This document shows, piece by piece, positions 23,095 to 40,494 of a DNA stretch of 64,000 bases. The position numbers and the translations under genes were made by a program. Numbering within the stretch: position 1 is the first letter of the stretch; each line of letters begins with the position of its first letter. This DNA is from Anaerolineae bacterium (lineage in GTDB: Bacteria > Chloroflexota > Anaerolineae > Epilineales > JAHCIE01): positions 3,905-67,904 of the forward strand of contig DAOUDG010000031.1 in assembly GCA_034431435.1 (NCBI GenBank). Direction: 5' to 3'. Under the pieces are notes generated by a model that saw nothing but the letters and a program-made list of their open reading frames with translations, searched no databases and was not told where the DNA came from.

Positions 23095-23117
23095 TAGCCA
23101 AGGGAGACCCACCACCT

Positions 23118-24113: not shown

Positions 24114-24207
24114 GCCTGGCGGGGCAGCCTTCCCACGTTTGTTAGCTCCATCGTGGAGCTTGACAATGTCCTCACCACTAGAACGAAGAGGAGAAAGGAC
24201 GCTCGGT

Positions 24208-25251
24208 ATGAAATCCCTAAGATTCGTTGTCGTTCTTGCCAGCCTGGTGGCCATCCTGGCCCTACTGGCGGCATGCACGCCAACACAGCAAGCCGCGGTC
24301 GAGAAGGCCGCGCCCACCGTCGCCGCCGCTGCCAAGGCCGCCGCGCCCACTGTGGCCGCCGCCGCTGCCGCCAAGACCGGCGACATGTACATCCCGGTCA
24401 TCTCGAAGGGCTTCCAGCACCAATTCTGGCAGGCGGTGAAGCAAGGCTCGGAGAAGGCGGCTAAGGACCTCGGCGTCCGCATCACCTTCGAAGGCCCAGA
24501 GAACGAGTCCCAGGTCGACAAGCAGATTGAGATGCTCCAGGCGGCCATCGACAAGAAGCCCGCCGCCATCTGCTTCGCCGCGCTGGACTCCAAGGCCGCC
24601 ATCCCGCTGTTGGAGAAGGCCAAGGCCGCCAACATTCCGGTGATCGGCTTCGACTCCGGCGTCGATAGCGACATCGTCAAGACGACGGCCGCCACGGACA
24701 ACATCGCCGCCGCCGCCGCCGCCGCCGACAAGATGGCCGCGCTGATCAATAACGAGGGCGAGATCGCGGTCATCGTCCACGACCAGACCAGCCGCACCGG
24801 CATCGACCGCCGCGACGGCTTCGTCAACCGCATCAAGGAGAAGTACCCCAACATCAAGATCGTCGACATCCAGTACGGCGGCGGCGACCAGCTCAAGTCT
24901 ACCGACCTGGCCAAGGCGATTCTCCAGGCCCGCCCCAACCTCAAGGGCTTCTTTGGCGCGAACGAGGGGTCCATCATCGGTGTCCTCAATGCCGTCAAGG
25001 AACTGAAGAGGGAAGGCAAGGTCGTGGTCATTGGCTACGACTCTGGCAAGCAGCAGATCGACGCCATCAAGGCAGGGACTGAGGCCGGCGCCATCACCCA
25101 GGACCCGATCGGCATCGGCTACAAGTGCGTCGAGGCCGCTGTCAAGGCCGTCAAGGGCGAAACACTGCCCAAGACCATCGACACTGGCTTCCACTGGTAC
25201 GACAAGACCAACGTCGACTCCGACCAGATCAAGCCACTGCTGTACAACTAG
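24208..25251 (+). CDS. Sugar ABC transporter substrate-binding lipoprotein, CUT2 family
   Basis: ATG 24208 after GAGGAGAAAGG. Lipobox LLAAC, Ala/Pro-rich linker, periplasmic-binding-protein type I fold (IGFDSG, VVVIGYDSG). Confidence 0.85.
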   Translation: MKSLRFVVVLASLVAILALLAACTPTQQAAVEKAAPTVAAAAKAAAPTVAAAAAAKTGDMYIPVISKGFQHQFWQAVKQGSEKAAKDLGVRITFEGPENESQVDKQIEMLQAAIDKKPAAICFAALDSKAAIPLLEKAKAANIPVIGFDSGVDSDIVKTTAATDNIAAAAAAADKMAALINNEGEIAVIVHDQTSRTGIDRRDGFVNRIKEKYPNIKIVDIQYGGGDQLKSTDLAKAILQARPNLKGFFGANEGSIIGVLNAVKELKREGKVVVIGYDSGKQQIDAIKAGTEAGAITQDPIGIGYKCVEAAVKAVKGETLPKTIDTGFHWYDKTNVDSDQIKPLLYN

Positions 25252-26179: not shown

Positions 26180-27475
26180 ATGATCTCAATCGGCGTAGGC
26201 GAAGCGAAGCGTTTCCTGAGCGAGGCGGAGATTGAGCGCATCGTGGCCGAAGGGCTGGCCGCTCTGCCTTTGACCGGGCAGCGTGTGCTGGTCCTGATCC
26301 CTGACCATACCCGCACCATGCCGCTGCCCCTGTTCTTCCGCCTGCTGACACGGCATCTGGCGGGGCGAGCCAGCGCCATCGACTTCCTGGTCGCCCTGGG
26401 TACGCATCCGCCCCTGGACGACGCCAGTCTGCTCCGTCTCGTCGGCATCACCGCCGAGGAGAAAGCAACAACCTACCGCAACGTCCACGTCTACAACCAC
26501 GCCTGGGACGACCCCGCCGCGCTGACCACCCTGGGCGTCATCCCGGCCGCCGACATCGCCGCCCTCAGCCAGGGCATGCTCCGCCAGGAGGTGCCGGTAC
26601 GCCTCAACAAGCGGGTTCTCGACTACGACCACATCCTCATCTGCGGCCCGGTCTTTCCCCACGAGGTCGTTGGCTTCTCCGGCGGCAACAAGTACTTCTT
26701 CCCCGGCATTGCCGGGCCTGACATCATCGACTTCACCCACTGGCTCGGCGCGCTCATCACCTCCTACGACATCATTGGGACGCAGGACACCCCTGTGCGG
26801 CGCGTCATCGACCGCGCTGCATCCCTCATCCCCCGCCCGCGCCACGCCCTGTGTAGCGTCGTCAGCCACGACGGCGTGTCGGGCGTATTCTCCGGCACGC
26901 CCGAGGCGGCCTACGCCGCCGCCGCCGACCTGTCCGCCCAGGTCCACATCAAGTGGCTGGACCAGCCCTACCGCACCGTGCTATCCGTGCTGCCCAGCAT
27001 GTACGACGAGCTATGGGTGGGCGGCAAAGGCATGTACAAGCTGGAGCCTGTCGTCGCCGACGGCGGCGAGCTTATCATCTACGCGCCCCATATCAAGGAA
27101 ATCAGCGTGACCCACGGCGCGGCGATCCGAGCCGTCGGCTATCACGTGCGCGACTATTTCGTCAGGCAATGGGACCAGTTCCAGGGTTATCCCTGGGGCG
27201 TGCTGGCCCACTCGACCCACGTGCGCGGTGTAGGCACATACGAAAACGGCATCGAGCGCCCGCGCATCCAGGTCACCCTGGCGACGGGCATCCCCGAGGA
27301 CGAGTGCCGCGCCGTGAACCTGGGCTATCGTGACCCGGCATCTATCGACCCGTCAGCATGGGCAGGCCGCGAGGCTGAGGGCATCCTGGTCGTGCCGCGC
27401 GCGGGCGAGTATCTGTACCGACTCAAGGATAAAACCCATTCGACCGTCCCGTCCGAAATGAGGGTGAACCCATGA
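26180..27475 (+). CDS. LarA-family (DUF2088, lactate-racemase-like) protein
   Basis: 431 aa; [12 protein letters not shown] with the conserved Lys (cofactor-tethering position in LarA) and downstream His. ATGA-coupled to fucI. Confidence 0.65.
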
Positions 27476-29283
27476 CCCAGTCTGCCCCTATCCCGACCGC
27501 CTGGAGCATCGGCGGCCTGCCCAAAATTGGCATCCGCCCGGCCATCGACGGGCGACGGCGCGGCGTGCGCGAGTCCCTGGAAGCGCCAACGATGGGGATG
27601 GCCCGCGCTACGGCCGACTTCCTGAGCGCCCACCTGCGCTACCCGACGGGTCAGCCCGTCGAGTGTGTCATCGCCGACTCGTGCATTGGCGGCGTGGCGG
27701 AGGCGGCCCAGTGCGCCGAGAAGTTCGCCCGCGCCGGCGTGGGCCTGACCATTACCGTCACGCCCTGCTGGTGCTACGGCTCCGAGACGATGGACATGGA
27801 CCCACAGATGCCCACGGCGGTGTGGGGCTTCAACGGCACGGAGCGACCCGGTGCGGTCTATCTGGCCGCGGTGCTGGCCGGGCACAACCAGAAGGGGCTG
27901 CCCGCCTTCAGCATCTATGGCCACGACGTGCAGGACCTGGGCGACCCTGGCATTCCTGCCGACGTGCAGGAGAAGCTGCTGCGCTTCGCCCGCGCCGGGC
28001 TGGCCGTGGCGATGATGCGCGGCAAGTCGTACCTGTCCATCGGCGGCACATCGATGGGCATCGCCGGCTCCATCGTCGACCAGCCCTTCTTCGAGACGTA
28101 TCTCGGCATACGCGTCGAGGTCGTCGATATGAGCGAGCTGACGCGCCGCATCGATGAGAACCTCTTCGACGGGGCGGAGTATGAGCGCGCTCTGGCCTGG
28201 ACAAAGCAGAACTGCGCCGAGGGCCGCGAGTACAACCCGCCCGCCAACCAGCGCAGCCGCGAGCAGAAGGACCACGACTGGGAGACCTCGGTCAAGATGA
28301 CCCTCATCGCCCGCGACCTGATGGTCGGCAACCCGCGCCTGGCCGAGATGGGCTTCGGCGAGGAGGCGCTAGGCCGCAATGCTCTGGCAGGAGGCTTCCA
28401 GGGCCAGCGCCAGTGGACCGATCATTTCCCCAACGGCGACTTCATGGAGGCCATCCTAAACTCGTCCTTCGACTGGAACGGCATCCGCGCCCCCTATATC
28501 TTCGCCACCGAGAACGACAGTCTGAACGGCGCGACGATGCTCCTGGGGTATCTGCTGACCAACACGGCCCAGATTTTCGCCGACGTCCGCACCTTCTGGA
28601 GTCCCGAGGCGGTCAAGCGCGTGACTGGCTACACCCTGGATGGCATCGCCGCCCAGGGCATCATCCACCTCATCAACTCTGGCGCGGCTACCCTGGACGC
28701 CTCGGGCGAGCAGGAGCGCGACGGCGCGCCGGTGATGAAGCCCTACTGGGAGATTAGCCAGGCCGAGGCGGAGCGTTGTCTCAAGGCGACCACCTGGTAC
28801 CCGGCCATGACCGAGTACTTCCGGGGCGGCGGCTACTCGTCCCAGTTCCTGACGCGCGGCGAGATGCCAGTGACGATGGCTCGTATCAACATCATCAAGG
28901 GCCTGGGGCCGGTCCTTCAACTGGCCGAGGGCGTGACCGTCGACCTGCCACCCGACGTGCACCACACCATCAACGAGCGCACCAACCCAACGTGGCCGAC
29001 CCACTACTTCGTGCCACGCACCACGGGTGAGGGGCCATTCCGCGACGTGTACTCAGTCATGGCGGCCTGGGGCGCGAACCACGGCGCGATCAGCTACGGC
29101 CACATCGGGGCGGACCTGATCACGCTGGCGTCCATGCTGCGCATCCCGGTGACGATGCACAACGTCCCCAACCCGCGACTGTTCCGCCCCGCGACGTGGA
29201 ACCACTTCGGCGCGCTGGAACCGGTCGGCGCGGACTATCGCGCCTGCGCCACCTTCGGCCCGCTGTACGGCCGGTACGCGTAG
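27472..29283 (+). CDS. fucI: L-fucose isomerase (also D-arabinose isomerase family)
   Basis: 603 aa, collinear with E. coli FucI: [48 protein letters not shown]...[41 protein letters not shown]. Confidence 0.92.
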
Positions 29284-29418: not shown

Positions 29419-30909
29419 ATGAGCGAATCGACCGGTACAGCCTACCTGGCCTTTGACCTGGGCGCGGAGAGCGGCCGCGCTGTCCTCGGCTGGCTCGCTG
29501 ACGACGAGTTGCGCCTGGAAGAGGTGCATCGCTTCGCCAACGGCCCGGTGCGTGTAGGCGACAGCCTGCATTGGGACGTTCTGCGCCTGTGGAGCGAGGT
29601 GCAGCGCGGGCTGGCGCTGGCCGCGGCGCGGGCGGGCGACGGGCTGGCGAGCCTGGGTGTCGATACCTGGGGCGTCGACTTCGGCCTGCTGGCCGCCGAC
29701 GACAGCCTGCTTGGCAACCCACACCACTACCGCGACCCGCGTACCGACGGCATGCTGGAGGCCGCCTTCGCGGTGACGCCCCGCGATGAAATCTACCGCC
29801 AGACGGGCATCCAACTCATGCAACTGAACACCCTCTACCAGTTGCTGGCGATGGTCCGCGCCGACTCGCCCGCCCTGGCGAGCGCGCGTCACCTGCTGAT
29901 GATGCCCGACCTGCTCAACTTCTGGCTATCCGGCGTCAAGGCCAACGAGTTCACCGACGCCACCACGACACAATGCTATGACCCGCGGGGCGAAAGGTGG
30001 GCGACGGGGCTTCTGGAACGGCTCGGCATCCCAACCGGCCTGTTTGGCGACATCGTACCGCCGGGCACGGCCCTCGGCCCGCTGCGCCCCAGCGTTGCAG
30101 CCGATGCCCATTGCCCACCCGTACAGGTCATCGCCACGGCCAGCCATGACACCGCCTCGGCCGTGGCCGCCGTGCCCGCGGCGGCCACCGACTACGTGTA
30201 CATCAGCTCCGGCACGTGGTCCCTTATGGGCATCGAGTCGCCCGCGCCAGTCATCAGCGACGCCAGCCTGCGCGCCAACCTCACCAACGAGGGCGGCGTC
30301 GCTGGCACGATTCGCCTGCTCAAGAACATCATGGGCATGTGGCTCGTCCAGGAATGCCGCCGCGCCTGGGCCGCCGAGGGCAAGACCTACACCTACGATG
30401 CCCTGACCGCCCTGGCCGAGGCAGCGCCCGCCTTCGGGCCGCTCATCAACCCGTCCGACGCGCGCTATCTGGCCCCTGGCGAGATGCCCGCCCGCATCCA
30501 GGCCGCATGTCGAGAGAGCGATCAGTCTGTGCCCGACACGCCGGGCGCGCTGGTGCGCTGCGTTCTAGAGAGCCTGGCTCTGGAGTATCGCCGCGTCATC
30601 GACCTTATCGAGACGATCGTTAGCCGCCCCATGACTGCGGTCCACATCGTCGGCGGCGGCTCGCGTAATCGCCTGCTCAACCAGTTGACGGCCAACGCCA
30701 CCGGCCGCCCCGTCATCGCCGGCCCCGTCGAGGCGACGGCGACGGGCAACATCCTGGTACAGGCCATCGCGACTGGACGGCTGGCCTCGCTGCGCGAGGG
30801 CCGCGACCTGCTGCGCCGCATCGTCGAAACCACAACCTACGAGCCGCGGGACGGCGCGGCGTGGGATGCGGTGTATGAGCGCTATCTGGGGCTTGTCAGC
30901 GACCACTGA
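29419..30909 (+). CDS. FGGY-family ketose kinase, rhamnulokinase-like (RhaB-type)
   Basis: 496 aa, collinear with E. coli RhaB: FDLGA.SGR, VDTWGVDF, YRD.RT.G, NTLYQL, SSGTWSLMG, NEGG..G.IR.LKNIMG.WL.QE, IVGGGS.N.LLNQL.A.A.G.PV.AGPVEA...GN. Confidence 0.8.
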   Translation: MSESTGTAYLAFDLGAESGRAVLGWLADDELRLEEVHRFANGPVRVGDSLHWDVLRLWSEVQRGLALAAARAGDGLASLGVDTWGVDFGLLAADDSLLGNPHHYRDPRTDGMLEAAFAVTPRDEIYRQTGIQLMQLNTLYQLLAMVRADSPALASARHLLMMPDLLNFWLSGVKANEFTDATTTQCYDPRGERWATGLLERLGIPTGLFGDIVPPGTALGPLRPSVAADAHCPPVQVIATASHDTASAVAAVPAAATDYVYISSGTWSLMGIESPAPVISDASLRANLTNEGGVAGTIRLLKNIMGMWLVQECRRAWAAEGKTYTYDALTALAEAAPAFGPLINPSDARYLAPGEMPARIQAACRESDQSVPDTPGALVRCVLESLALEYRRVIDLIETIVSRPMTAVHIVGGGSRNRLLNQLTANATGRPVIAGPVEATATGNILVQAIATGRLASLREGRDLLRRIVETTTYEPRDGAAWDAVYERYLGLVSDH

Positions 30910-30988: not shown

Positions 30989-32335
30989 GTGGATAGCGTC
31001 ACTACCGACCTGGAAGCCAAACTCAATGACCTGTCGTTCCAGCAGCGGCTCGAAGCCCTGGCGGAACTGGCGCGGCGGGCCAGGCTGTCCGATACGCCCC
31101 GCCCGGCTGAGACCGAGCGGGTCAACATGCACTGTCACAGCCTCTACTCGTATAACGCCTACGGCTACTCGCCGGCCGCCCTGGCCTGGCTGGCCTATCA
31201 GCGCGGCTGGCGCGCCATTGGCCTGGTCGACTTCGACGTGCTGGACGGCGTGGATGAGTTCCTCGATGCCTGCGACCTGCTCGGCGTGCGTGGCGCGGCC
31301 GCCCTGGAAACGCGCACCTTCCTGCCCCCGTTCGCCGACCGCGAGATCAACTCGCCGGGCGAGCCGGGTGTGTTGTATCACATGGGCCTCGGCTTCAGCA
31401 GCAGCCGGGTCCCCGACGCTGCTGGCAGCGCCCTGGCCGACCTGCGCACCCGCGCCACGCGCCGCAACCGCGACATGATCGCGCGCCTGAACCGCTACCT
31501 CGACCCGGTTACCGTCGACTACGACACCGACGTACTGACCATGACGCCTTCAGGCAATGCGACGGAGCGACACATGCTCGTCGCCTACGTGCGCGCCGCC
31601 GAAGCGCAGACGCCCAACCCGACCGCCTTCTGGGCTGACCGGCTCGACTTACCCGGCGACAAGGTCGCCACGCTGATGGAGAACCCGGCGCAGTTCCAGA
31701 ATACGCTACGCGCCAGGCTGATGAAGCGCGGCGGTGTGGGCTACGAGCAGCCCGGCCCCGACACTTTCCCGCCCTTCGCCGAGGTGCAACGCCTCATCCT
31801 GGCCTGCGGCGCGCTGCCGTGCTACGCCTTCCTCGACGGCACATCCAGCGGCGAGCAGGCGCTGGGCGAGCTGGTGGGGCTGCTGGTGGACCACGGTACG
31901 GTGGCCGTGAACATTATTCCCGATCGTAACTGGAACATCGCCGACGCCGCGACCAAGGCGGTCAAGCTGCAACGCCTGCATGACCTGGCGCGGCTGGCCG
32001 ACGACCTGGCGCTGCCTTTCAACATTGGCACCGAGATGAACAGCCCCGGCCAACGGCTGGTGGACGACCTGGACGCGCCCGAACTGGCGTCGCTACGCCA
32101 GGCCTTCCTCGACGGCGCGTACTTCGTCTACGGCCATACCGTGTTACAACGCGCCCTGGGTCTGGGCTACCAGAGCGACTGGGCGCGGGACTGTCTCCCT
32201 GAGCGACGCGCGCGGAACGCCTTCTACACCCAGGTCGGCCGGGCCGTTCCACCCGGTCGCGCGGGCCTGGCCCAACTCCAGGCATTGGATGCTTCCATGT
32301 CGCCATCAGACCTATTAGCGAGGTTGAGCCTATGA
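30989..32335 (+). CDS. PHP-domain (polymerase/histidinol-phosphatase-like) metal-dependent phosphoesterase family protein, function unknown
   Basis: GTG 30989 after AGGGAG. N-terminal PHP motif VNMHCHSLYS...IGLVDFD; 448 aa with no further family assignment. Confidence 0.5.
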   Translation: MDSVTTDLEAKLNDLSFQQRLEALAELARRARLSDTPRPAETERVNMHCHSLYSYNAYGYSPAALAWLAYQRGWRAIGLVDFDVLDGVDEFLDACDLLGVRGAAALETRTFLPPFADREINSPGEPGVLYHMGLGFSSSRVPDAAGSALADLRTRATRRNRDMIARLNRYLDPVTVDYDTDVLTMTPSGNATERHMLVAYVRAAEAQTPNPTAFWADRLDLPGDKVATLMENPAQFQNTLRARLMKRGGVGYEQPGPDTFPPFAEVQRLILACGALPCYAFLDGTSSGEQALGELVGLLVDHGTVAVNIIPDRNWNIADAATKAVKLQRLHDLARLADDLALPFNIGTEMNSPGQRLVDDLDAPELASLRQAFLDGAYFVYGHTVLQRALGLGYQSDWARDCLPERRARNAFYTQVGRAVPPGRAGLAQLQALDASMSPSDLLARLSL

Positions 32336-34071
32336 GCGTCACTACCTTGAAGCGCGACAAACTGGATGAGTATAAGCGCGCCGACGCGCCGCTGCCCGAG
32401 CACAATGTTGTGTGGCCTACCTACGGCGCAGGCTTCGAGAACTTCGGTCGTGACGAACGGCCCATCGAGACGCCGCTGCCTCCCGCCGGCGCCGATGAAC
32501 TGATCGTCCGCCATGACGCCTGCGGCCTGTGCTTCTCCGACATCAAGATTATCTCCCTCGGTGAGCAGCACCCGCGCATCTTCCGCGACATCCGCCAGGA
32601 GCCGGTCGTCCAGGGCCACGAGGTCGCCATGACCGTCGTCCAGGTCGGCGACGATCTGCGCGACCAATACCACGTCGGCGACCGCTTCATCATCCAGGCG
32701 GACATCTTCAAGGACGGCGTCGGCTACGCCTACGGCTACATGATCGACGGCGGGCTGTCGCTATACGGGCGCATCGACCAGCGCATCCTCAACGGTGACG
32801 GCGGCAACTATCTGATTCCCATCCAGCCGCGCGACGGGTACGCCGAAACGGCCCTGGCCGAACCGTGGGCGTGTGTCATCGCCGCCTACGAGCTGACCTA
32901 TCGCAGCGGGTTGAAGCCCGGCGGCACGACCTGGATCGTGGGCACGGGCGCGAGCGGCACGGCGTACACTATCAGCGCCGGCTTCGACGCGGCGAGTCAC
33001 CCGGCGCGGCTGCTGCTGACCGACGTACCGCCGGCCTTTGCGGCCTGGCTTCGGGAGCGCGCCGCCGCCCTCGGCGTCGAGGTGCTGGATGCGCCGGACG
33101 TGACTGCGCCGCCGGTCACTCCCAGCGACGACATCGTGCTACTCGCCACGACCGCCGATCTGGTGGAGACGGTCAGCCCGCATCTGGCCGACTTCGGCAT
33201 CGTTGCCCTGCTGGGCAACACGCCCCTCGACCGACCGGCCCAGGTGGACATTGGCCGCGTCCACTATAACCGCTGGACCTACGTCGGCGGGCGGGGAACC
33301 GACGTGGCGCGCGCCTACAGCGACCTGCCGGTGCGCGCCGCGCTGCGGCCGGGCGGGCGCGCCTGGTTCATCGGCGCGGGTGGGCCGATGGGACGCATGC
33401 ACGTCCAGCGCGCCCTGCAAAGCCCGCAACCGCCCGCCATCATCGTCTGCACGGACATGGGCGACGTGCGCCTCCAGGCCCTGCGCGACACCTTCGCCGG
33501 GGAGGCAGCGGCGCGCGGCATCGAGTTCGTGTGCATCAATCCGGCGCATCGCGGCGCCGCCGCAGCCGAGCAGGAGATGGACCATTTCAGGGCGGAAGGC
33601 TTCGACGACATTGTCGTCCTGGCCCCCGCGCCGGCCGCCATCGCCGACGCGGCCAACTGGCTCGCGCCCCAGGGTGTGATGAACATCTTCGCGGGCGTGG
33701 CGCGCGGCGTGACGACCCGGCTGGACCTGAGTGCGGTGTATCTACGGGACGTGCGCTTCATCGGCCACTCAGCATCGGACATCGATGACCTGCGCCTGAC
33801 GCTCCACAAGGTCGAGACGGCCGAGTTGTCGCCCAACCGCTCCGTGGCGGCTATCGGCTCATTGAGCGCGGCGCGCGACGGGCTGATCGCCGTGCGCGAC
33901 AGCGTCTTCCCCGGCAAGGTAGTCATCTACCCGCACATCACGGACTTGCCGCTAACGCCACTGGCCGACCTGAAGGATCGCCTGCCGACCGTGTACGCGA
34001 AACTCAAGGATGGTCGCGAGTGGACCATCGAGGCCGAGGAAGAGTTGCTGCGCGTGATGCTACCAGAGTGA
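32332..34071 (+). CDS. Zn-dependent medium-chain dehydrogenase/reductase (polyol or polyol-phosphate dehydrogenase-like) with long C-terminal extension
   Basis: ATGA overlap with the upstream gene. GroES-like domain (CGLCFSDIK, GHEVAMTVVQVGDD) plus Rossmann domains; 579 aa is ~200 aa longer than typical MDRs. Confidence 0.7.
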   Translation: MSVTTLKRDKLDEYKRADAPLPEHNVVWPTYGAGFENFGRDERPIETPLPPAGADELIVRHDACGLCFSDIKIISLGEQHPRIFRDIRQEPVVQGHEVAMTVVQVGDDLRDQYHVGDRFIIQADIFKDGVGYAYGYMIDGGLSLYGRIDQRILNGDGGNYLIPIQPRDGYAETALAEPWACVIAAYELTYRSGLKPGGTTWIVGTGASGTAYTISAGFDAASHPARLLLTDVPPAFAAWLRERAAALGVEVLDAPDVTAPPVTPSDDIVLLATTADLVETVSPHLADFGIVALLGNTPLDRPAQVDIGRVHYNRWTYVGGRGTDVARAYSDLPVRAALRPGGRAWFIGAGGPMGRMHVQRALQSPQPPAIIVCTDMGDVRLQALRDTFAGEAAARGIEFVCINPAHRGAAAAEQEMDHFRAEGFDDIVVLAPAPAAIADAANWLAPQGVMNIFAGVARGVTTRLDLSAVYLRDVRFIGHSASDIDDLRLTLHKVETAELSPNRSVAAIGSLSAARDGLIAVRDSVFPGKVVIYPHITDLPLTPLADLKDRLPTVYAKLKDGREWTIEAEEELLRVMLPE

Positions 34072-34086: not shown

Positions 34087-34887
34087 ATGATGCTTCCAGA
34101 TAGAGTCGCCATTGTCACCGGCGGCGCGCAGGGGTTGGGCGAAGCCCTCTGCCAGCGCCTGGCCCGCGAGGGCTGCCACGTTGTCGTGGCCGACATCAAC
34201 GCCGAGCAGGCCGCCGCCACTGCCGACGGCATTACCACCGCCGCGCGCGCCACCGGCTCCGACCGCCGCGCCATTGGCGTCAAGGTCGACGTCACGAGTG
34301 AAGAGCAGGTCGCCGCCCTGGTCGACCGCGCCGTCGCCGAGTTTGGCCGTCTCGATGTGCTGGTGTCCAATGCGGGCATCCTCATCGCCGAGGACATTAC
34401 CGACTTCCCCGCCGACAAGTGGCAGGCCGTGATGATGGTCAATCTCTACGGCTACTTCCTGTGTGCCAAGCACGCCGCGCGGGTGATGAAGCCGCAAGGT
34501 AAGGGCGTCATCATCCAGATCAACTCCAAGTCGGGCAAGAAGGGCAGCTTCAAGAACTCCGCCTACGCGGCCTCCAAGTTCGGCGGCATCGGCCTCACCC
34601 AGAGCATCGCCCTCGACCTGGCCGAGCATGGCGTGCGCGTCAACGCTGTCTGCCCCGGCAACCTGCTCGACTCGCCCTTGTGGGTCAACTCGCTTTACAA
34701 GCAGTATGCCCGGAAGTGGGGCATCACCGAGGCCGAGGTACGCCAGCGCTACATCGACCAGGTTCCCATGAAGCGCGGCTGCACCTACGACGACGTCTGC
34801 AATGTGGTCGCCTTCCTGGCCTCCGACCAGGCCAGCTACATGACCGGCCAGGCCATCAACGTGACCGGCGGCCAGGAGATGCGCTAA
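34087..34887 (+). CDS. Short-chain dehydrogenase, sorbitol-6-phosphate 2-dehydrogenase (SrlD)-like
   Basis: 266 aa; [67 protein letters not shown]. Close motif-by-motif resemblance to SrlD. Confidence 0.8.
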
Positions 34888-34897: not shown

Positions 34898-36217
34898 ATG
34901 CCAATCGCTGTCATTCTGCCCAAGCTGGGCAACACCGTCGAGAGTTCCATTATCGCCCGCTGGCTCAAGCGACCCGGCGAGACCGTCGCCGAAGGCGAGC
35001 CACTGGTGGAGATCGAGACCGACAAGAGCAGCCTTGAGGTAAACAGCCCCGCCGCGGGCGTCCTCCTCGACACGTTCTTCGGCCCAGGCGACGACGTGCC
35101 CGTGCTGACCACCATCGCCGCCATCGGCCAGCCGGGCGAGGAGGCGGCTTCCCTTCGCCCGCGTGACGCGGCGACACCCGCCACCCCTGCCCCCCCTCCG
35201 GCTCCCCCCGTCGACCATGGGAAGGGGGAGGAGGGAATCAGTGAGGTCTTCGTCTCGCCACGCGCGCGGCGGCTGGCCGAGCACAAGGGGCTGGCCGTGG
35301 CGGACCTGACGGGTAGCGGCCCCGGCGGGCGCATCATCGAGCGCGACGTGCAGGCCGCCCTCGCCGCCCGACCGCGTCTGACGCCCCTGGCGCGCGCCCT
35401 GGTCGAGAAGGGCGGCTTCACCCCGCCCGCCGACGCCGCCGGCCGCGTCACCAGCCGCGACCTTACGCCACCCACCGCGACGGCCTCCGCGCCTGGCATA
35501 GCCGGGCCAACCCAGGCCGTCGCCGAGTACGAAGATATACCGCTCAGCAACGTGCGCCGCCTCATCGCCGAGCGCATGCTGGCCTCCTTGCAGACCACGG
35601 CCCAGCTGACCCTCAACGCCTCGGCCGACGCCCGCCAGGTGCAGGCCCTCCGCCAGCGGCTCAAGGCCAGCCCCGAGGCCCTCGGCCTGCGCGAGGTGAC
35701 GGTCAACGATCTGGTGCTGTTCGCCGTCAGCCGCACCTTGACCCGCTTCCCCGACCTCAACGCCCTCTTCCTGGACAAGAGTCTGCGCCGCTTCACGCCG
35801 GTTCACCTCGGCTTCGCTGTGGACACGCCGCGCGGCCTGCTCGTACCCGTCATCCGTCATGCCGACAGCCTCAGCCTGCGCGCCCTGTCCCAGGCGGCGC
35901 GGCGGCTGGCCCAGGCGGCGCAAGACGGCAAGGCCACCCCCGACGACCTCAGCGGCGGCACGTTCACCGTGACCAACCTGGGCAGCCTCGGCATCGAGAG
36001 CTTCACGCCGGTGCTCAACCCGCCCCAGGTCGCCATCCTCGGCGTGGGATCCATTCAATTGAAGCCCGTCGACGCCGACGGCGAGGTGCAGTTCATCCCA
36101 CACCTGGGCCTGTCCCTGACCATCAACCACCAGGTTGTAGACGGCGCGCCGGGCGCGCGCTTCCTGCACGCCGTGACCCAGGCCATAGCCAGCCTGGACT
36201 TGCTATTGGCGACGTGA
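34898..36217 (+). CDS. 2-oxoacid/acetoin dehydrogenase complex E2 (dihydrolipoamide acyltransferase), single lipoyl domain
   Basis: Lipoyl motif [13 protein letters not shown]3/E1-binding domain ([32 protein letters not shown]), catalytic domain ending ...[15 protein letters not shown]. Confidence 0.85.
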
Positions 36218-36283
36218 TACGCGGGTGGTCACATGGCCGCCCGCGACCCCGATTGGCCCGTCGATCATTGCCCCAGAGGAACT

Positions 36284-38734
36284 ATGCCCAAGACCCTACT
36301 CATTGATCCCGTGGAAGTACGTCGACCTGGCGTCATCGTCGCCCCCAACATCCCCATCAACCAGTACACGCCCGACCCCCAGGCCGAGGCGAAGACCTAC
36401 GGCCGCGACGCCCTGGTGCGCATCTACCGCGACATGGTACTCATTCGCGAGTTCGAGACCATGCTCGACCGCATCAAGAAAGAGGGCGTCTACGAGGGCA
36501 TCGAGTACAGCCACAAAGGCCCCGCCCACCTGTCCATCGGCCAGGAAGCCGCCGCCGTTGGCCAGGCCTTCCATCTCACTCGCGACGACTTCATCTTCGG
36601 TTCGCATCGCAGCCACGGCGAGATTCTCGCCAAGAGCTTCTCGGCCATCGCCGGGCTAGCCGAGGCTGAGCTGACCGCCATCATGGAGAGCTACCTGGAT
36701 GGCGCGCCGCTGCGCGTCGTCGAGACCTACAGCCGCGCCGACGCGCCGAGCCTGGCCCTCGATTATGTCCTGTACGGCACGCTGGCCGAGATCTTCGGCC
36801 GCGCCGCCGGCTTCAACCAGGGCCTGGGCGGGTCGATGCACGCCTTCTTCCCTCCCTTCGGCGTCCTACCCAACAACGCCATCGTCGGCGGCTCGGCCGA
36901 TATTGCGACTGGCTCGGCCCTCTACAAGCGCGTCAACCGCAAGCCCGGCATCGTCATCGCCAACATCGGCGACGCCAGCATGGGCTGCGGGCCGGTTTGG
37001 GAAGCGATGATGTTCGCCGCCATGGACCAGTATCGCACGCTGTGGGATGCGGAGATCGGCGGCGCGCCGCCCATCCTGTTCAACTTCATGAATAACTTCT
37101 ACGGCATGGGCGGTCAGCCGAAAGGCGAGACCATGGGCTTCGACGTGCTGGCCCGCGTCGGGTTGGGCGTCAACCCGGAGGGTATGCACGCCGAGCGCGT
37201 CGACGGCTTCAACCCGCTGGCCGTGGCCGACGCCATCGCCCGCAAGCGACCGGTCCTCGAAGGCGGGCGCGGCCCTGTGTTGCTGGATGTGGTAACCTAT
37301 CGCTTCTCCGGTCACTCGCCGTCGGACGCCTCCAGCTACCGCGACAAGGCCGAGATGGACCTGTGGCAGGGCGTCGACTCCCTGGTGACCTACCGCCAGT
37401 ACCTGCTGGACAACGGCCACGCCGACGCGGCCGCCCTCGACGCCATTCGCGCCGACGCCGTGGCCCGCATCAGCCAGGCCCTGCGCGCCGCCGCCGACCT
37501 GGAGCGCTCGCCGCGCCTCAGCGAGGAGGCCATCGCGGCCGTCATGTTCTCGAACGAGTTGAAGGATCGCATCGCTGAGGGCACGCCGGAGGTGCGGCTG
37601 GCGAAGGCTGACAGCCGCCTGGCCGTCACAGAGGGCAAGTTCCGCTTCGCCTTCGACGCTCAGGGCCAGCCCCACCCCAGGCTCAAGACGCTGACCTACG
37701 CCGAGGCCCTGTTCGAGGCGATGATGCACCGCTTCTACGCCGATCCTACGATGGTGGCCTACGGCGAGGAGAACCGCGACTGGGGAGGCGCGTTCGGCGT
37801 GTATCGCGGGCTGACGGAGTGCCTACCCTACCACCGCCTGTTCAACTCGCCCATCTCCGAGGGGGCCATCGTGGGCACGGCGGTAGGCTACGCCCTCAGC
37901 GGCGGGCGCGTCGTGGCCGAGCTGATGTACGCCGACTTCATGGGGCGCGCAGGCGACGAGATCTTCAACCAGATGGCGAAGTGGCAGGCCATGTCGGCCG
38001 GGCTGCTGGCATTGCCCCTGGTGCTACGTATCTCGGTGGGCGCCAAATATGGCGCGCAGCACTCCCAGGACTGGTCAGCGCTGGTGGCCCATGTGCCCGG
38101 CCTGCGGGTCATGTATCCGGCCACGCCCTACGACGCCAAGGGCATGCTGAACCTGGCCTTGCGGGGAACGGACCCGGTGGTGTTCTTCGAGAGCCAGCGC
38201 CTCTATCCGGAGCCGGAGAGGCTGGTTCAGGGCGGCGTGCCTGTGGACTACTACGAAGTTCCCCTCGGCGAGCCAGTGGTACGCCGCGAGGGCGGCGACC
38301 TGACGCTCATCACCCTCGGCCCGGCCCTCTACATCGCGCTGGAAGCGGCCGACGAGTTGGCGAAGCATGGCGTCGCGGCCGAGGTTATCGACCTGCGCTT
38401 CCTGAACCCACTGAACTACGAACCCCTAGTCCAGTCGATCCGCAAGACGGGCAAGGCGGCGCTGGTATCGGAGGCGTGCGAGCGCGGCTCGTTCATGCAC
38501 ACCGTCGCCTCCAATCTAACGCAGCTGGCCTTCGACTACCTGGACGGCCCCATCGCGGTGGTCGGAGCGCGCAACTGGATCACGCCCGCCGCTGAGATAG
38601 AGGACCTGTTCTTCCCCCAGAAAGAGTGGATTGTGGACACTGTCCACGAACGAGTGCTGCCCCTGGCGGGCTACACGCCCCTCACACGCCAGGCCACGTC
38701 TGAGATCATCACTCGCAACCGCGCGGGGATTTAG
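36284..38734 (+). CDS. Fused E1 alpha-beta component of a TPP-dependent 2-oxoacid/acetoin dehydrogenase complex
   Basis: ATG 36284 after AGAGGA (the track ORF opens at 36233). N-terminal E1-alpha TPP-binding region ([17 protein letters not shown]) and C-terminal E1-beta transketolase-like Pyr and C-terminal domains in one 816-aa polypeptide. Confidence 0.85.
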
Positions 38735-38820
38735 GTTGGTAGCCACGCAGGGCAGGGCCTCGCCCCTGCCCTCTTGACGGAAGAATGGGACACGGACGAA
38801 CACACAATGAGGTGGAACTC

Positions 38821-40494
38821 GTGAGCCAAACCAAATATGCCCTGGGACTGGACTTTGGTACCGAGTCGGGGCGCGCGGTTGTCGTCGACGTCGGCAGCGG
38901 CAAGACCGTCGGCAGCGCCACCTACCGCTACGCCGATGGCGTCATCGACGAGAAGCTGCCGGGCACGAGCACCCGCCTCGGCCCCGATTGGGCCTTACAG
39001 AACCCCGCCGACTACCTGGCGACCCTCAAGCAGGCCGTGCCCGAGGCCCTCACGGCGGCGGGCGTGCCGGCCGAAGACGTGATTGGCATCGGCATCGACT
39101 TCACCGCCTGCACCATCCTGCCGACGCGGGCCGACGGCACGCCACTGTGCTTCGAGCCGGAGTGGAAGGGTAACCCCCACGCCTGGACCAAACTGTGGAA
39201 ACATCATGCCGCCCAACCCGAGGCTGACCGCATCAATGCCGTGGCCGTGGAGCGGGACGAGGCGTGGCTACCCCTATACGGTGGGCGCATCTCGTCCGAG
39301 TGGCTGCACAGCAAGGCGTTACAGATCCTCGACGAGTCGCCCGATGTCTACGCAGCGATGGACAGAATCGTCGAGGCGGGTGACTGGGTCGTCTGGCAGA
39401 TGACCGGCGTAGAGAAGCGCAATGCCTGCGCCGCTGGCTACAAGGGCATGTGGAACAAAGCCACCGGCTACCCCAGCAATGACTTCCTGCGCGCCCTCGA
39501 CCCGCGCCTCGACGGCTTCCATCAGACGAAGGCGGCGGGCGAGGTGGTCGCCCCGGGCGCGCGGGTGGGCCACCTGACCGAGAAGGCGGCGGCGTGGATG
39601 GGCCTGCGGCCCGGCATCGCCGTCGCCGCACCGACCATCGACGCCCACGCCGCCGTACCGGGCGCGGGCGTGACAACGCCAGGCCGCATGACCCTCATCC
39701 TGGGCACGTCCACCTGCCACATGATCGTGGACGAGGAACAGCATCTGGTGCCCGGCATCAGCGGCGTCGTCGGCGACGGCATCATCCCCGGCCTGTATGG
39801 CTACGAGGGCGGACAGGCCGGGGTGGGCGACATCTTCGAGTGGTTCGTGGAGAATGCGGTACCGAGCTGGTATGAGCGGGGTGCGGCGGAGGCAGGGCTG
39901 AGTGTCTACCAGGCCCTGGAGCGCGACGCCGCCCAACAGCGGCCAGGCGAAGCGGGCCTCATCGCCCTCGACTGGTGGAACGGCAACCGCTCGGTGTTGG
40001 TCAACGCCGGGTTGAGCGGCCTGCTCATCGGCATGACCCTCGGCACGCGCCCACCCGACATCTACCGCGCCCTGATCGAAGCGACCGCCTTCGGGACCAA
40101 GATTATCGTCGACACCTTCGAGCAGCACGGCGTGCGCGTCGATGAGCTGGTGGCGTGCGGCGGCCTGGCCGAGCGCAACAAGCTACTCTTGCAGATTTAC
40201 GCCGACGTGACCGGCCGCGAGTTCGTGGTCGGCGGCACGGGCCAGGCGTCGGCCCTCGGCGCGGCCATGCTCGGCGCGCTGGCGGCAGGACGAGCGGCGG
40301 GCGGCTTCGACTCGCTGACCGACGCAGCCCGGTCGATGGTCGCCAGCACCGGCGAGACCTACCGGCCCCACGCGGCGAACCACAGGGTCTACCAGAGCCT
40401 CTTCGCCGACTATCAGCGCCTGCACGACACCTTTGGGCGCGGCGCGAACGACGTCATGCTGCGCCTGCGCGAGATGCGCCACCAGGAGATGTAG
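38821..40494 (+). CDS. FGGY-family kinase, ribulokinase (AraB)-like
   Basis: GTG 38821 with GAGGTGG 7 nt upstream (alternative ATG 38785). ALGLDFGTES, GIDFTACT, SSEW...KALQIL, LGTSTC, GYEGGQAGVGDIFEWF, LDWWNGNRS, CGGLAERNKLLLQIYADVTGRE. Confidence 0.8.
   Translation: MSQTKYALGLDFGTESGRAVVVDVGSGKTVGSATYRYADGVIDEKLPGTSTRLGPDWALQNPADYLATLKQAVPEALTAAGVPAEDVIGIGIDFTACTILPTRADGTPLCFEPEWKGNPHAWTKLWKHHAAQPEADRINAVAVERDEAWLPLYGGRISSEWLHSKALQILDESPDVYAAMDRIVEAGDWVVWQMTGVEKRNACAAGYKGMWNKATGYPSNDFLRALDPRLDGFHQTKAAGEVVAPGARVGHLTEKAAAWMGLRPGIAVAAPTIDAHAAVPGAGVTTPGRMTLILGTSTCHMIVDEEQHLVPGISGVVGDGIIPGLYGYEGGQAGVGDIFEWFVENAVPSWYERGAAEAGLSVYQALERDAAQQRPGEAGLIALDWWNGNRSVLVNAGLSGLLIGMTLGTRPPDIYRALIEATAFGTKIIVDTFEQHGVRVDELVACGGLAERNKLLLQIYADVTGREFVVGGTGQASALGAAMLGALAAGRAAGGFDSLTDAARSMVASTGETYRPHAANHRVYQSLFADYQRLHDTFGRGANDVMLRLREMRHQEM

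Follow-up and report, generated by a model that had tools for sequence, protein, structure and literature searches.

Among the 6-deoxy sugars in the glycans of plants, algae, mucin and bacteria, L-fucose and L-rhamnose predominate. To our knowledge, the textbook phosphorylative routes for these sugars all involve aldolase cleavage, with L-lactaldehyde as an intermediate. The lactaldehyde routes of anaerobes either end in the excretion of 1,2-propanediol or require B12-dependent microcompartments. Acetoin dehydrogenase, which works in anaerobes too, converts a methyl ketol (CH3-CO-CHOH-R) to acetyl-CoA and an aldehyde. Thiamine diphosphate (ThDP)-dependent making or breaking of the C2-C3 bond of ketose phosphates is known from DXS, the apulose-4-P transketolase and the sulfo-TK pathway. 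Here we describe a gene pair for a dihydrolipoamide acyltransferase (E2) and a fused E1 alpha-beta, whose recurrence in fucose operons of several phyla points to an undescribed route of 6-deoxy-sugar breakdown.

Genetic organization of the locus

The gene pair lies within a 64-kb stretch of DNA, all of which was analysed and which is referred to as the window. On the forward strand the genes follow each other in the order ABC sugar transporter, Amidohydro_2, LarA-like, FucI, FGGY kinase 1, PHP-like, MDR, SDR, E2, E1 and FGGY kinase 2 (Table 1). The intergenic gaps around the E2-E1 pair are 10, 66 and 50 nt long, and no terminator signals above shuffled expectation were detected at the locus. 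A sequence-only reading of this DNA had described the pair as flanked by sugar genes. Indeed, FucI, the FGGY kinases, dehydrogenases and the ABC sugar transporter surround it, and amino-acid genes are absent from its vicinity.

Table 1 Features of the fucose cluster surrounding the E2-E1 gene pair (positions refer to the window)
Feature	Position	Strand	Length (aa)	Evidence
LacI-type regulator, same ORF as URO-D-like domain	18424..20556	+		Pfam
ABC sugar transporter: ATPase, permease, binding protein	21556..25251	+		Pfam
L-fucose isomerase FucI	27472..29283	+	603	NF008220 1073 bits, cut-off 775
FGGY kinase 1, rhamnulokinase/fuculokinase-like	29419..30909	+	496	TIGR02627 492 bits, cut-off 528
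PHP-family metal-dependent phosphoesterase-like protein	30989..32335	+	448	Homologue, predicted fold
Long divergent zinc-type MDR dehydrogenase	32332..34071	+	579	ADH_N, weak ADH_zinc_N (Pfam)
SDR, sorbitol-6-phosphate 2-dehydrogenase type	34087..34887	+	266	NF009050 389 bits, cut-off 307
E2, dihydrolipoamide acyltransferase	34898..36217	+	439	Lipoyl, E3-binding and catalytic domains (Pfam)
Fused E1 alpha-beta, thiamine-diphosphate-dependent	36284..38734	+	816	Pfam, RBS + ATG
FGGY kinase 2, ribulokinase (AraB)-like	38785..40494	+	569	NF003154 710 bits, cut-off 428

A LacI gene is also the first gene of the equivalent cluster in locus L100, where the same ABC transporter genes are located upstream of FucU and FucI. 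FGGY kinase 1 gave 104 bits in comparison with an E. coli-type fuculokinase; an orthologue with 57% identity follows RhaA in L104, and the kinase is present in L004, L072 and L084 as well. FGGY kinase 2 has the same placement, directly downstream of E1, in L004, L100, L034 and L040.

When four E3 sequences taken from related loci served as tblastn queries, the 64-kb window gave no match (best E = 0.17), and the scanned window ORFs of at least 200 aa contain no Pyr_redox_2 domain. The earlier claim that E3 is missing therefore holds for the 64-kb window. It does not hold as a general trait, since 13 related loci carry an E3 gene between E2 and E1. As the E2 of the window keeps its E3-binding domain, an E3 encoded elsewhere is expected. 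No second copy of E1 or E2 is present in the 64-kb window, and tblastn with two queries revealed no class II aldolase (FucA/RhaD) there at E ≤ 1e-3. Genes for lactaldehyde reductase, aldehyde dehydrogenase or microcompartments were not found in the fucose cluster of the window.

Domain structure of E2 and the fused E1

The E2 protein comprises a lipoyl domain (Biotin_lipoyl, aa 5-75), a peripheral subunit (E1/E3) binding domain (E3_binding, aa 117-152, 49 bits) and a C-terminal acyltransferase domain (2-oxoacid_dh, aa 210-437, 235 bits), so that all three features defining the E2 of a 2-oxoacid dehydrogenase complex were identified. The lipoylatable lysine is that of the DK in the motif ETDKSS (about aa 40-45), and the catalytic-His motif NHQVVDG fits the pattern (D)H(R/Q)xxDG.

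The ORF of E1 opens at 36233. ATG 36284, which has a GAGG just 5′ of it, is likely the start codon; the resulting protein is 100% identical to database protein P0001, and for this reason the length of 816 aa noted earlier proved right. E1_dh, Transket_pyr and Transketolase_C are combined in this single chain, and the Pfam domains thus bear out the arrangement of E2 followed by a fused E1. The protein contains the ThDP motif GDAS...NN (GDA...NN, a GDG-type ThDP/Mg motif) and keeps the catalytic histidines of the alpha part (in TYRFSGHS) and of the beta part (in GAQHSQ). It has the features of heterotetramer-type ThDP-dependent E1 enzymes and departs from their usual two-gene form by the subunit fusion. 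With all E2 domains and motifs, the ThDP motif and both catalytic histidines in place, the E1/E2 complex looks intact at the sequence level. The active-site residues of E1 do not discriminate between a 2-oxoacid and a ketol substrate.

Classification of E1 and E2

A neighbour-joining (NJ) tree and percent identities were used to place the alpha part of E1 relative to PdhA, AcoA-like and BkdA sequences. It falls outside all three groups into a clade of its own, formed by fused proteins of about 770-850 aa. Identity amounts to 29-31% with PdhA- and AcoA-like sequences and 23% with BkdA. Two sequences annotated as pdhA (29-30% identical) form a clade that excludes the alpha part. Clustering with housekeeping pyruvate dehydrogenase, which the sequence-only reading had named, together with being the only PDH copy of the genome, as speaking against its interpretation, was consequently not seen.

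Assignment to the PdhA/PdhB equivalog was rejected, since all curated scores are below cut-off and the alpha part lies outside the pdhA clade: E1 reached 180 bits with TIGR03182 (cut-off 394) and 120 bits with TIGR03181 (cut-off 411), and its beta part 242 bits with the PDH E1-beta subfamily model PRK09212 (cut-off 321). AcoA/AcoB was rejected as well, the AcoA-like alpha subunit of C. difficile and the AcoA-annotated one of Sphingobium sharing only 30-31% identity and forming a separate clade. The same applies to BkdA/BkdB (23% identity to Rhizobium BkdA; no amino-acid or acyl-CoA genes found nearby) and to a shorter class of fused alpha/beta E1 proteins (about 650-740 aa compared to 816 aa; 31-34% identity, separate clade). 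A PDB search with E1 gave 51 bits for BCKDH alpha versus 79 for PDHA1, and DXS and transketolase models were weakly matched by the beta part (61-72 bits). The best curated or solved relatives of E2 are PDH-type acetyltransferases (NF008814, 278 bits, cut-off 722; PDB 9y7v E2p, 239 bits; E2o about 140 bits; E2b 106 bits). Judged by these scores, E2 is nearest to acetyl-transferring E2p enzymes.

As the main alternative to a sugar-cleaving complex, the gene pair might encode a pathway-linked pyruvate (2-oxoacid) dehydrogenase, E2 and the beta part of E1 being most similar to PDH components. A class II aldolase, encoded within the cluster in the case of rhamnose and at another site in that of fucose, would cut fuculose- or rhamnulose-1-phosphate, L-lactaldehyde would be converted to L-lactate by a RhaW-like SDR and further to pyruvate, and E1, E2 and E3 would form acetyl-CoA, so that the operon would cover the lactaldehyde branch to its end. 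The conservation of E1, with 62-76% identity across phyla, resembles that of a central enzyme, and rhamnose regulons extended towards pyruvate by lactate dehydrogenases have already been described (PMC3870299). Nevertheless, we consider this explanation unlikely. The alpha part stands apart from PdhA, and no lactate dehydrogenase was found in the cluster. Moreover, the DHAP branch also yields pyruvate, for which the housekeeping enzyme is needed anyway, so that a dedicated pyruvate dehydrogenase would be superfluous; a pathway-specific complex would be hard to justify for a substrate that every cell already handles.

The PHP, MDR and SDR proteins

Three further proteins of the cluster bear on this question. 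The window copy of the PHP-like protein has no Pfam match, and its orthologue in L074 matches the PHP domain at 1.5e-7. About 6089 homologues are present in the database (E ≤ 1e-5), which are termed 'hypothetical' wherever the source names them. The AlphaFold model (pLDDT 90.7) has its closest solved folds among COG0613 PHP phosphoesterases, 2yb1 and RNase AM, and an HxH together with further His, Asp and Glu residues is invariant. The MDR dehydrogenase showed weak PDB and NCBIfam matches throughout; its orthologues (57-75% identity) always adjoin the PHP and SDR genes.

The SDR matched sorbitol-6-phosphate dehydrogenase in the PDB (5o3z) with 262 bits, the runner-up with 156. Its orthologues share 75-85% identity in Chloroflexota clusters, and relatives with 38-46% identity occur in clusters of Spirochaetota and Atribacterota. 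Sorbitol-6-phosphate dehydrogenase oxidises the last carbon but one at the end opposite the phosphate; in fuculose-1-phosphate this position corresponds to C5. A match of the SDR to the dehydrogenase half of RhaEW (192 bits) is in line with the formation of pyruvate from lactaldehyde, but at 389 bits the protein is much nearer to the sorbitol-6-phosphate dehydrogenase model than to RhaW. Conversion of pyruvate would also leave the PHP phosphoesterase, the long MDR and the second kinase without a role.

Conservation of the module across related loci

E2 is located directly upstream of this type of E1 in 67 of 72 related loci. The order of the two genes, previously regarded as unusual, is thus the standard layout of the family. 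Sugar-type regulators are encoded near the pair (DeoR in 26 loci, furthermore SorC and LacI). PHP, MDR and SDR together accompany E2-E1 in 17 of 82 loci, which belong to Chloroflexota, Spirochaetota and Atribacterota. In the same three phyla the module occurs with fucose or rhamnose genes (FucI, FucU, fucosidases, RhaA), and sugar genes, specifically those for fucose and rhamnose, are kept near E1/E2 across phyla, as the suggested check of synteny revealed. FucU and FucI are present in L004, L100 and L074, FucI in L079 and L084, and GH29 and GH95 fucosidases in L072. None of the seven fucose-only clusters contains a class II aldolase, which argues against a route through lactaldehyde and pyruvate.

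Rhamnose-linked versions of the cluster contain RhaA or RhaI, and in four of them (L101-L104) a RhaE-like class II aldolase directly adjoins the module. Such an Aldolase_II gene also lies next to the module in L012 and L037, an arrangement that would suit a pyruvate-forming branch. L103 and L104, from which the E1 type of the window is missing, encode orthologues of PHP, MDR and SDR (62%, 57-63% and 76% identity) next to an E2 and a fused E1 of another type (681-688 aa, 34% identity). The coupling of the trio to two E1 lineages suggests that it depends on a lipoamide E1/E2 pair, which may belong to one lineage or the other.

This coupling also bears on the view that the position of E2-E1 carries no functional meaning, the pair being a mobile unit of two genes that serves branched-chain or other 2-oxoacids and was inserted at random into a sugar operon. 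The pair does occur in many unrelated neighbourhoods of Chloroflexota and Poribacteria. Yet the same neighbours recur in three phyla, the PHP-MDR-SDR trio goes with both lineages of E1/E2, the cluster is tightly spaced (10-66 nt), the alpha part is distant from BkdA and amino-acid genes are missing nearby, all of which makes a chance adjacency very improbable.

E1 relatives with about 50% identity from proteobacteria (Pleomorphomonas, Rhizobium plasmids) are encoded beside a split AcoC-type acetoin E2, in which a lipoyl protein and an alpha/beta-hydrolase are separate (65 and 202 bits to PRK14875). This partnership speaks against pyruvate as the substrate. Furthermore, the module was found in Atribacterota and Treponema, strict anaerobe lineages in which pyruvate is normally oxidised by PFOR.

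In about half of the Chloroflexota loci no deoxy-sugar genes are recognisable within 10 kb of E2-E1, which weighs against a dedicated role in deoxyhexose breakdown. The complex could alternatively act like an oxidative transketolase on ordinary or short ketose phosphates, fucose being one of several feeders. A XylB-, AraB- or PfkB-like kinase would, for example, make pentulose-5-P, erythrulose phosphate or 1-deoxy-pentulose-5-P, which E1/E2 would cut to glycolyl-CoA or acetyl-CoA and a triose or C2 phosphate. In many Chloroflexota and Alphaproteobacteria the minimal set in fact consists of a kinase, E1, E2 and sometimes a HAD phosphatase with a DeoR/SorC regulator, and the kinase beside the Pleomorphomonas relative is a true xylulokinase (463 bits, cut-off 380). 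Other contexts include a ROK kinase, GMC/GFO oxidoreductases, an RPE-like epimerase, mannitol dehydrogenase and inositol-1-P synthase. However, glycolyl-CoA would be of little use in catabolism, and Xu5P and Ru5P can do without a special cleavage step. The E2 belongs to the acetyl-transferring enzymes, the E1 relatives go with an AcoC-type E2, and the tight coupling to PHP, MDR, SDR and deoxyhexose genes would stay unexplained. Such a broader role thus appears rather improbable.

A possible route for L-fucose

According to our preferred reading, E2 and the fused E1, together with an E3 from elsewhere, may form a dedicated lipoamide-dependent, acyl-transferring complex for C-C cleavage of 6-deoxyhexoses, here L-fucose; we put its probability at roughly 0.4. 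Gene context and homology are best read as an acetoin-dehydrogenase-like cleavage of a deoxyhexose-derived methyl ketol phosphate to acetyl-CoA, for which we would give similar odds; this agrees with the thiamine-dependent C-C cleavage of a sugar-derived ketol that the sequence-only reading had suggested.

L-fuculose would be formed by FucI and converted to L-fuculose-1-phosphate by the rhamnulokinase-like FGGY kinase. Aldolase cleavage would be skipped, and the SrlD-type SDR and the long MDR would shift the carbonyl to C5, beside the methyl group, giving a methyl ketol (5-keto-6-deoxyhexulose phosphate or 1-deoxy-ketohexose 6-phosphate). The thiamine diphosphate of E1 would then attack the methyl ketone in the fashion of acetoin dehydrogenase, so that a four-carbon sugar-phosphate aldehyde is freed and the acetyl group passes to the lipoyl arm of E2 and on to acetyl-CoA. 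Finally, the PHP phosphoesterase and the second kinase may reposition the phosphate on the C4 product for entry into central metabolism.

Several points count against our reading. Given the stereochemistry of L-fucose, D-threose-4-P or a compound of the D-erythrulose-1-P type is predicted as the C4 product; both lie outside central metabolism, and an isomerase acting on either was not identified. In addition, FucA may be encoded outside the 64-kb window. If the RhaE-like protein of L101-L104 is a true aldolase, the module would act downstream of L-lactaldehyde and not on the intact hexulose phosphate.

In its general form, the proposal of an aldolase-independent route for L-fucose in Chloroflexota, Spirochaetota, Atribacterota and other phyla is a tentative one. 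The carbonyl would be moved beside the methyl group, C5-C6 cut off as acetyl-CoA and a C4 sugar phosphate left, L-rhamnose being included via an added 4-epimerase-like class II aldolase homologue. We found no published description of such a system. If it exists, it would bypass lactaldehyde, 1,2-propanediol and microcompartments and alter how much carbon and energy Anaerolineae, Caldilineae, Spirochaetes and Atribacteria, which are abundant and poorly cultured groups, are predicted to gain from fermenting deoxy sugars. Genome-based predictions would change for carriers that are now called 'FucA-negative' or whose complex is mislabelled as PDH or BCKDH. The 'hypothetical' PHP-like family and the large fused E1 family would gain a function, and the substrate range of lipoamide complexes would extend to sugar phosphates. 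Should the complex turn out to be a pyruvate dehydrogenase, the PHP-MDR-SDR module conserved in deoxy-sugar operons would still call for an explanation, and one that can be tested.

Comparison with known systems

Acetoin dehydrogenase (AcoA/AcoB/AcoC/AcoL) likewise combines an alpha/beta-type ThDP-dependent E1 with a lipoyl-E2 and E3, and a split form of AcoC is found beside the relatives that share about 50% identity with the E1 described here. In contrast, the alpha and beta parts are fused in the window, E2 precedes E1, and the alpha part (about 30% identical to AcoA-like sequences) belongs to a separate clade. E2 lacks the AcoC-type architecture of a lipoyl domain and an alpha/beta-hydrolase fold and has the classical 2-oxoacid_dh catalytic domain instead. 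The window contains no acoR, acoX or butanediol genes, the context being deoxy-sugar catabolism.

The Gram-positive/mitochondrial-type PDH complex (PdhA/PdhB/PdhC/PdhD) shares the domain set, the conserved catalytic histidines and the E2p-like E2. It differs in that the window proteins score under the cut-offs (alpha 180/394, beta 242/321, E2 278/722), the E1 subunits form one chain, the genes stand in the reverse order and the operon lacks E3. Moreover, the surroundings of the pair are those of a sugar operon, with DeoR-, SorC- or LacI-type regulator genes next to it.

The shorter fused 'alpha-ketoacid dehydrogenase subunit alpha/beta' is also a single-chain E1 adjoining E2. As it adjoins orthologues of the PHP, MDR and SDR proteins in L103 and L104, it seems functionally interchangeable there. 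Its gene nevertheless precedes that of E2, the window protein is about 130-160 aa longer, and the shorter type, with only 31-34% identity, forms a separate clade.

With the canonical fucose and rhamnose pathways (FucI-FucK-FucA; RhaA-RhaB-RhaD or RhaEW) the cluster shares a FucI above its curated cut-off and, in the window or in relatives, a rhamnulokinase/fuculokinase-like kinase, FucU, fucosidases and the ABC transporter. FucA/RhaD, however, are absent from the window and from the fucose-only clusters, and PHP, MDR, SDR and E1/E2 are in their place. Formally, the proposed reaction would be the oxidative reverse of a DXS-type condensation. DXS and transketolase enzymes, in contrast, transfer their C2 unit onto an aldehyde as acceptor and work without a lipoyl-E2, whereas the complete E2 beside the E1 of the window implies an oxidative transfer to CoA.

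The E2 and E1 genes lie in a fucose gene run

The pair of genes for E2 (acyltransferase) and E1 (ThDP enzyme) belongs to a 22-kb stretch of co-directional genes. The genes around the pair are separated by gaps of 10, 66 and 50 nt, and no terminator or promoter signal above shuffled expectation splits the pair from the sugar genes. The sequence-only reading had described an E2 gene placed before a single fused E1 of 816 aa with sugar genes on both sides. ORFs and Pfam-type domains agree with this description, and FGGY kinases, FucI and dehydrogenases are indeed found in the same run. E1 probably starts at the ATG at 36284, which is preceded by a GAGG ribosome-binding site; counted from this codon, the protein comprises 816 aa and is identical to the database protein P0001. 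E2 contains the motifs ETDKSS (lipoyl-lysine) and NHQVVDG (catalytic histidine), and E1 contains GDAS...NN (ThDP), TYRFSGHS (alpha-subunit histidine) and GAQHSQ (beta-subunit histidine). Active-site residues highlighted in a paper on E1p of G. stearothermophilus are also conserved in this E1. These residues were dropped as a means to tell a 2-oxoacid from a ketol substrate, since they are general catalytic ones.

Location of the genes considered, in the window and in related loci of other genomes
Locus	Feature	Position	Strand	Remarks
Window	URO-D-like protein and LacI regulator	18424-20556	+	share one stop-free ORF
Window	LacI-type regulator, aldo-keto reductase, ABC sugar transporter			start of the gene run
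Window	aldo-keto reductase, Amidohydro_2 lactonase-like and LarA-like genes	20372-21559 and 25339-27475	+	Amidohydro_2 and LarA-like genes after the transporter
Window	L-fucose isomerase (FucI)			after LarA-like gene; 1073 bits, exceeds curated cut-off
Window	FGGY kinase, rhamnulokinase-like			after L-fucose isomerase
Window	448-aa protein (PHP)	30989-32335	+	after rhamnulokinase-like kinase; without Pfam match
Window	MDR dehydrogenase	32332-34071	+	579 aa, divergent; after 448-aa protein
Window	SDR	34087-34887	+	between MDR and E2; exceeds curated sorbitol-6-phosphate dehydrogenase cut-off
Window	E2, 439 aa	34898-36217	+	lipoyl, E3-binding and 2-oxoacid_dh catalytic domains
Window	fused E1 alpha-beta	36233-38734 (ORF)	+	E1_dh, Transket_pyr, Transketolase_C in a single chain
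Window	FGGY kinase, AraB-like			after E1, end of the run
Window	ribose-5-phosphate isomerase A, 6-phosphogluconolactonase, glucose-6-phosphate isomerase	40520-43642	-	convergent with the fucose cluster, at its end
Window	red-type form I RuBisCO operon	55131-58963	+
Window	RuBisCO large subunit	55131-56576	+
Window	RuBisCO small subunit	56598-57017	+
Window	CbbX-like AAA+ protein	within ORF 56747-57934	+
Window	phosphoribulokinase	57959-58963	+
L072	SDR with N-terminal extension	14318-15547
L074	SDR with N-terminal extension	13981-15231
L074	URO-D-like gene	4943-6049
L101	URO-D-like gene	5928-7127
L103	different fused E1, then E2	14833-18318		after the PHP, MDR and SDR genes
L104	different fused E1, then E2	12139-15668		after the PHP, MDR and SDR genes

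Further genes of the window deserve mention. The aldo-keto reductase, the Amidohydro_2 protein (fuconolactonase-like, 288 bits, under the cut-off of 400) and the LarA-like nickel-pincer protein ('hexonate epimerase'-like, 174 bits, under the cut-off of 500) hint that sugar acids might be handled by a second, oxidative branch, for which no dehydratase was found in the gene run. The ORF shared by the URO-D-like protein and the LacI regulator reflects either a gene fusion or an artefact of the assembly. URO-D-like proteins, which give weak matches of the MtaA/CmuA methyltransferase type, recur beside fucose/rhamnose and PHP/E1 clusters (L074, L101, L023, L037, L052, L053, L080). The convergent pentose-phosphate genes may be a coincidence, or may be tied to a sugar-phosphate product entering the pentose phosphate pathway. 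A RuBisCO operon is also present, in a genome that protein matches suggest to be of Chloroflexota (Anaerolineae/Caldilineae-like).

Placement of the fused E1

Curated models placed both parts of E1 below the cut-offs for pyruvate dehydrogenase: with the PDH E1-alpha model the alpha part reached 180 bits (cut-off 394), and the PDH E1-beta subfamily model gave 242 bits for the beta part (cut-off 321). Models of other 2-oxoacid dehydrogenase E1 proteins were absent from the curated-model matches. Among solved structures the beta part matched Thermus and Geobacillus E1-beta (198-212 bits), and the alpha part gave weak matches to human PDHA1 (79 bits) and to BCKDHA and Geobacillus PdhA (51 bits). 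An exhaustive profile search yielded a graded series of fused proteins of 770-850 aa down to about 35% identity, after which shorter fused proteins of 650-690 aa followed.

The alpha core was compared by neighbour joining with annotated alpha subunits from plasmid records (one from an Aco-like operon of C. difficile, 'AcoA' of Sphingobium, BkdA of Rhizobium and two pdhA). In the resulting tree the long fused proteins formed a clade of their own. According to this tree, the window's E1 alpha part does not cluster with housekeeping pyruvate dehydrogenase, the outcome named beforehand as speaking against a sugar-specific role, nor was it found in the Aco or Bkd clade of these references. Its identity was 29-31% to AcoA-like and pdhA proteins and 23% to BkdA.

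Gene order in related loci

The window's E1 has thousands of relatives, the best of which (816-822 aa, 73-94% identical) stem mainly from Anaerolineae and Caldilineae MAGs. A scan of E1 loci with one genome per species yielded at least 572 loci, of which 80 were kept (E1 identity 62-76%; Chloroflexota, Poribacteria, Trueperaceae, Spirochaetota, Atribacterota, Lentisphaeria and others); ORFs were called in every locus and then clustered. E2 lies directly upstream of E1 on the same strand in 67 of the 72 loci with room upstream. Such counts exceed the number of independent events, as the MAGs behind many of the loci are related. Since these 67 loci share it, the order of E2 followed by fused E1 is standard for this E1 family. 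The order noticed in the sequence-only reading is therefore real, but not a local oddity.

The absence of E3 (dihydrolipoyl dehydrogenase) is a different matter. As that reading had stated, no E3 gene was detected within the 64 kb by tblastn with four E3 queries from related loci (best E = 0.17), and a second E1 or E2 was likewise not found in the window. Nevertheless this is a local feature, because a dihydrolipoyl dehydrogenase-type gene (378 bits) is located between E2 and E1 in 13 loci, mostly of Spirochaetota and allies. The window's E2 retains its E3-binding domain, and an E3 encoded elsewhere is therefore expected. In L004 (Anaerolineae) an lpd-like gene 7 kb downstream is about 30% identical to the E3s between E2 and E1 and was not counted as the E3 of the module. 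In some related loci (L029, L030, L048, L055) another E2 or another fused E1 is encoded nearby. Litorilinea aerophila (L001), OZ241871.1, OZ246960.1 and contig JAXLWL010000002.1 (L004) are among the carriers of the module.

The neighbourhoods vary between lineages. In Poribacteria and relatives (L003/L011, L014, L018, L019, L046) E2-E1 is situated between genes for a GFO/IDH/MocA oxidoreductase and inositol-1-phosphate synthase, and no fucose genes were found nearby in these loci. In four Chloroflexota loci (L021, L027, L048, L060) the upstream genes encode a SorC regulator, an MDR, two oxidoreductases (one GFO-family, one GMC), a ROK kinase and a protein resembling ribulose-phosphate 3-epimerase, which suggests a keto-sugar route feeding the same E2-E1 complex.

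Association with fucose and rhamnose genes

At least two genes of a trio (PHP protein, long MDR, SDR) accompany E2-E1 in 17 of 82 non-redundant loci (Chloroflexota, Spirochaetota, Atribacterota). The 448-aa PHP-like protein has about 6000 homologues, termed 'hypothetical protein' wherever the source names them. Its AlphaFold model (pLDDT 90.7 with a 60-sequence alignment, 36 for the single-sequence model) has the COG0613 PHP phosphoesterases pAp phosphatase (2yb1) and RNase AM as closest solved folds, and neither the metal-binding HxH nor a set of additional His, Asp and Glu residues varies. It was rejected as a candidate for the missing aldolase, the nearest folds all being phosphoesterases. 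The best solved relative of the SDR is Erwinia sorbitol-6-phosphate dehydrogenase (262 bits vs. 156 for the next match).

Two Anaerolineae loci (L004, L100) repeat the window's cluster with FucU added. L072 carries GH29 and GH95 fucosidases and a rhamnulokinase-like kinase upstream of DeoR-E2-E3-E1-PHP-SDR-MDR, L074 (Atribacterota) combines FucU, FucI, E2, E1, PHP, SDR, MDR and two PfkB kinases, and FucI is also present in L079 and L084 (Spirochaetota). No class II aldolase was detectable in the window or in the fucose-only clusters, of which L079 and L084, being short contigs, weigh less. PHP homologues led to five additional loci, L100 and L101-L104. The latter four are rhamnose-linked (RhaA or RhaI, GH106 rhamnosidase, rhamnulokinase-like kinase), and in each a RhaE-like class II aldolase homologue adjoins the module. 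The conserved synteny with sugar genes thus holds for clusters of Chloroflexota, Spirochaetota and Atribacterota.

In L103 and L104 the trio is orthologous to that of the window (identity of PHP 62%, MDR 57-63%, SDR 76%), and is followed by a different fused E1 (681-688 aa, 34% identical) and then E2, i.e. in the canonical order. By sequence, the complex looks as if it had been replaced by a distantly related paralogous lineage. The trio keeps a lipoamide E1/E2 partner across this change, and no other observation argues as strongly for the complex being an integral part of the deoxy-sugar pathway. Mere chance adjacency of E2-E1 and sugar genes is very unlikely, given this constancy and the conserved partners across phyla.

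The SDRs of several Spirochaetota and Atribacterota loci (L072, L074, L075, L077, L080) possess an N-terminal extension of 100-145 aa, which weakly resembles RhaE-like class II aldolase homologues in their C-terminal part (E about 0.003). A fusion of the RhaEW type may have left it behind; the similarity is too weak to interpret.

A possible route to acetyl-CoA

The main rival explanation is a pathway-linked pyruvate dehydrogenase: an aldolase would yield L-lactaldehyde, the SDR would convert it to lactate and then pyruvate would be formed, from which E1/E2 would produce acetyl-CoA. The RhaE-like genes next to the module, the relationship of the SDR to the RhaW half of RhaEW and the described extension of rhamnose regulons by lactate dehydrogenases (PMC3870299) count for it. 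We nevertheless regard it as unlikely: there are fucose-only clusters without aldolase, no lactate dehydrogenase is present in the cluster, the SDR is far nearer to SrlD than to RhaW (389 vs. 192 bits), E1 is no PdhA, and this explanation assigns no function to the PHP protein, the long MDR or the second kinase. Moreover, pyruvate from the DHAP branch is already converted by the housekeeping enzyme of the cell, so that a pathway-specific complex suggests a pathway-specific substrate.

The best-fitting, though tentative, reading of homology and gene context is that the complex would cleave a methyl ketol derived from a deoxyhexose to acetyl-CoA. The carbon oxidised by sorbitol-6-phosphate dehydrogenase is the penultimate one at the end remote from the phosphate; in L-fuculose-1-phosphate this is C5, beside the methyl group. 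MDR enzymes such as galactitol-1-phosphate 5-dehydrogenase perform the same chemistry on hexitol phosphates. Because of these chemistries we propose that SDR and MDR would shift the carbonyl from C2 to C5. A plain 358-aa MDR in L102, with no established orthology to the long MDR of the window, weakly matches the galactitol-1-phosphate 5-dehydrogenase model. The methyl ketol would be 5-keto-6-deoxyhexulose-1-phosphate or, via L-fucitol-1-phosphate, 1-deoxy-D-tagatose-6-phosphate; PMC2962223 equates L-fucitol with 1-deoxy-D-galactitol. E1 would cleave the ketol in the manner of acetoin dehydrogenase acting on acetoin, and E2 would deliver acetyl-CoA with release of a C4 sugar phosphate. On this product the PHP phosphoesterase and the second kinase (AraB-like in the window, XylB-like or PfkB elsewhere) could reposition the phosphate, e.g. 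from erythrulose-1-phosphate to erythrulose-4-phosphate. L-Rhamnulose-1-phosphate and L-fuculose-1-phosphate differ at C4 alone, and the RhaE-like protein of the rhamnose clusters could therefore serve as a 4-epimerase. For its superfamily such an activity is reported in PMC5434028, namely for AraD.

Relation to acetoin dehydrogenase and other known systems

The top plasmid matches to E1 were fused E1s of about 50% identity from Pleomorphomonas sp. SM30 and a Rhizobium strain. As a feature shared with acetoin dehydrogenase, two proteins come after E1 in both records, a lipoyl protein of 80 aa and an alpha/beta-hydrolase, which jointly cover the acetoin-dehydrogenase E2 model PRK14875 (65 + 202 bits). 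A gene for a SorC-type regulator comes after the operon, sugar ABC transporter genes are found nearby in both records and the Rhizobium record also contains a mannitol-dehydrogenase-family gene. The kinase encoded upstream on the opposite strand is a true xylulokinase by score (463 bits, cut-off 380) and most similar to FGGY kinases adjoining E2-E1 in many Chloroflexota. A metagenomic E1 relative (44% identical) also adjoins an alpha/beta-hydrolase. On account of these plasmid, Chloroflexota and metagenomic neighbourhoods, the wider E1 family is linked with sugar kinases and, in certain lineages, with an E2 of the acetoin type. A general complex cleaving ketose phosphates to glycolyl-CoA or acetyl-CoA would fit the minimal modules of kinase, E1 and E2 as well as the range of sugar contexts that Chloroflexota and Poribacteria show; we consider it improbable and rank it after the pyruvate dehydrogenase explanation.

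A full-text literature search found no published description of such a lipoamide-complex module in deoxy-sugar operons. Its components are of known kinds; new would be their combination, the long fused E1 and the fact that the aldolase step seems to be replaced.
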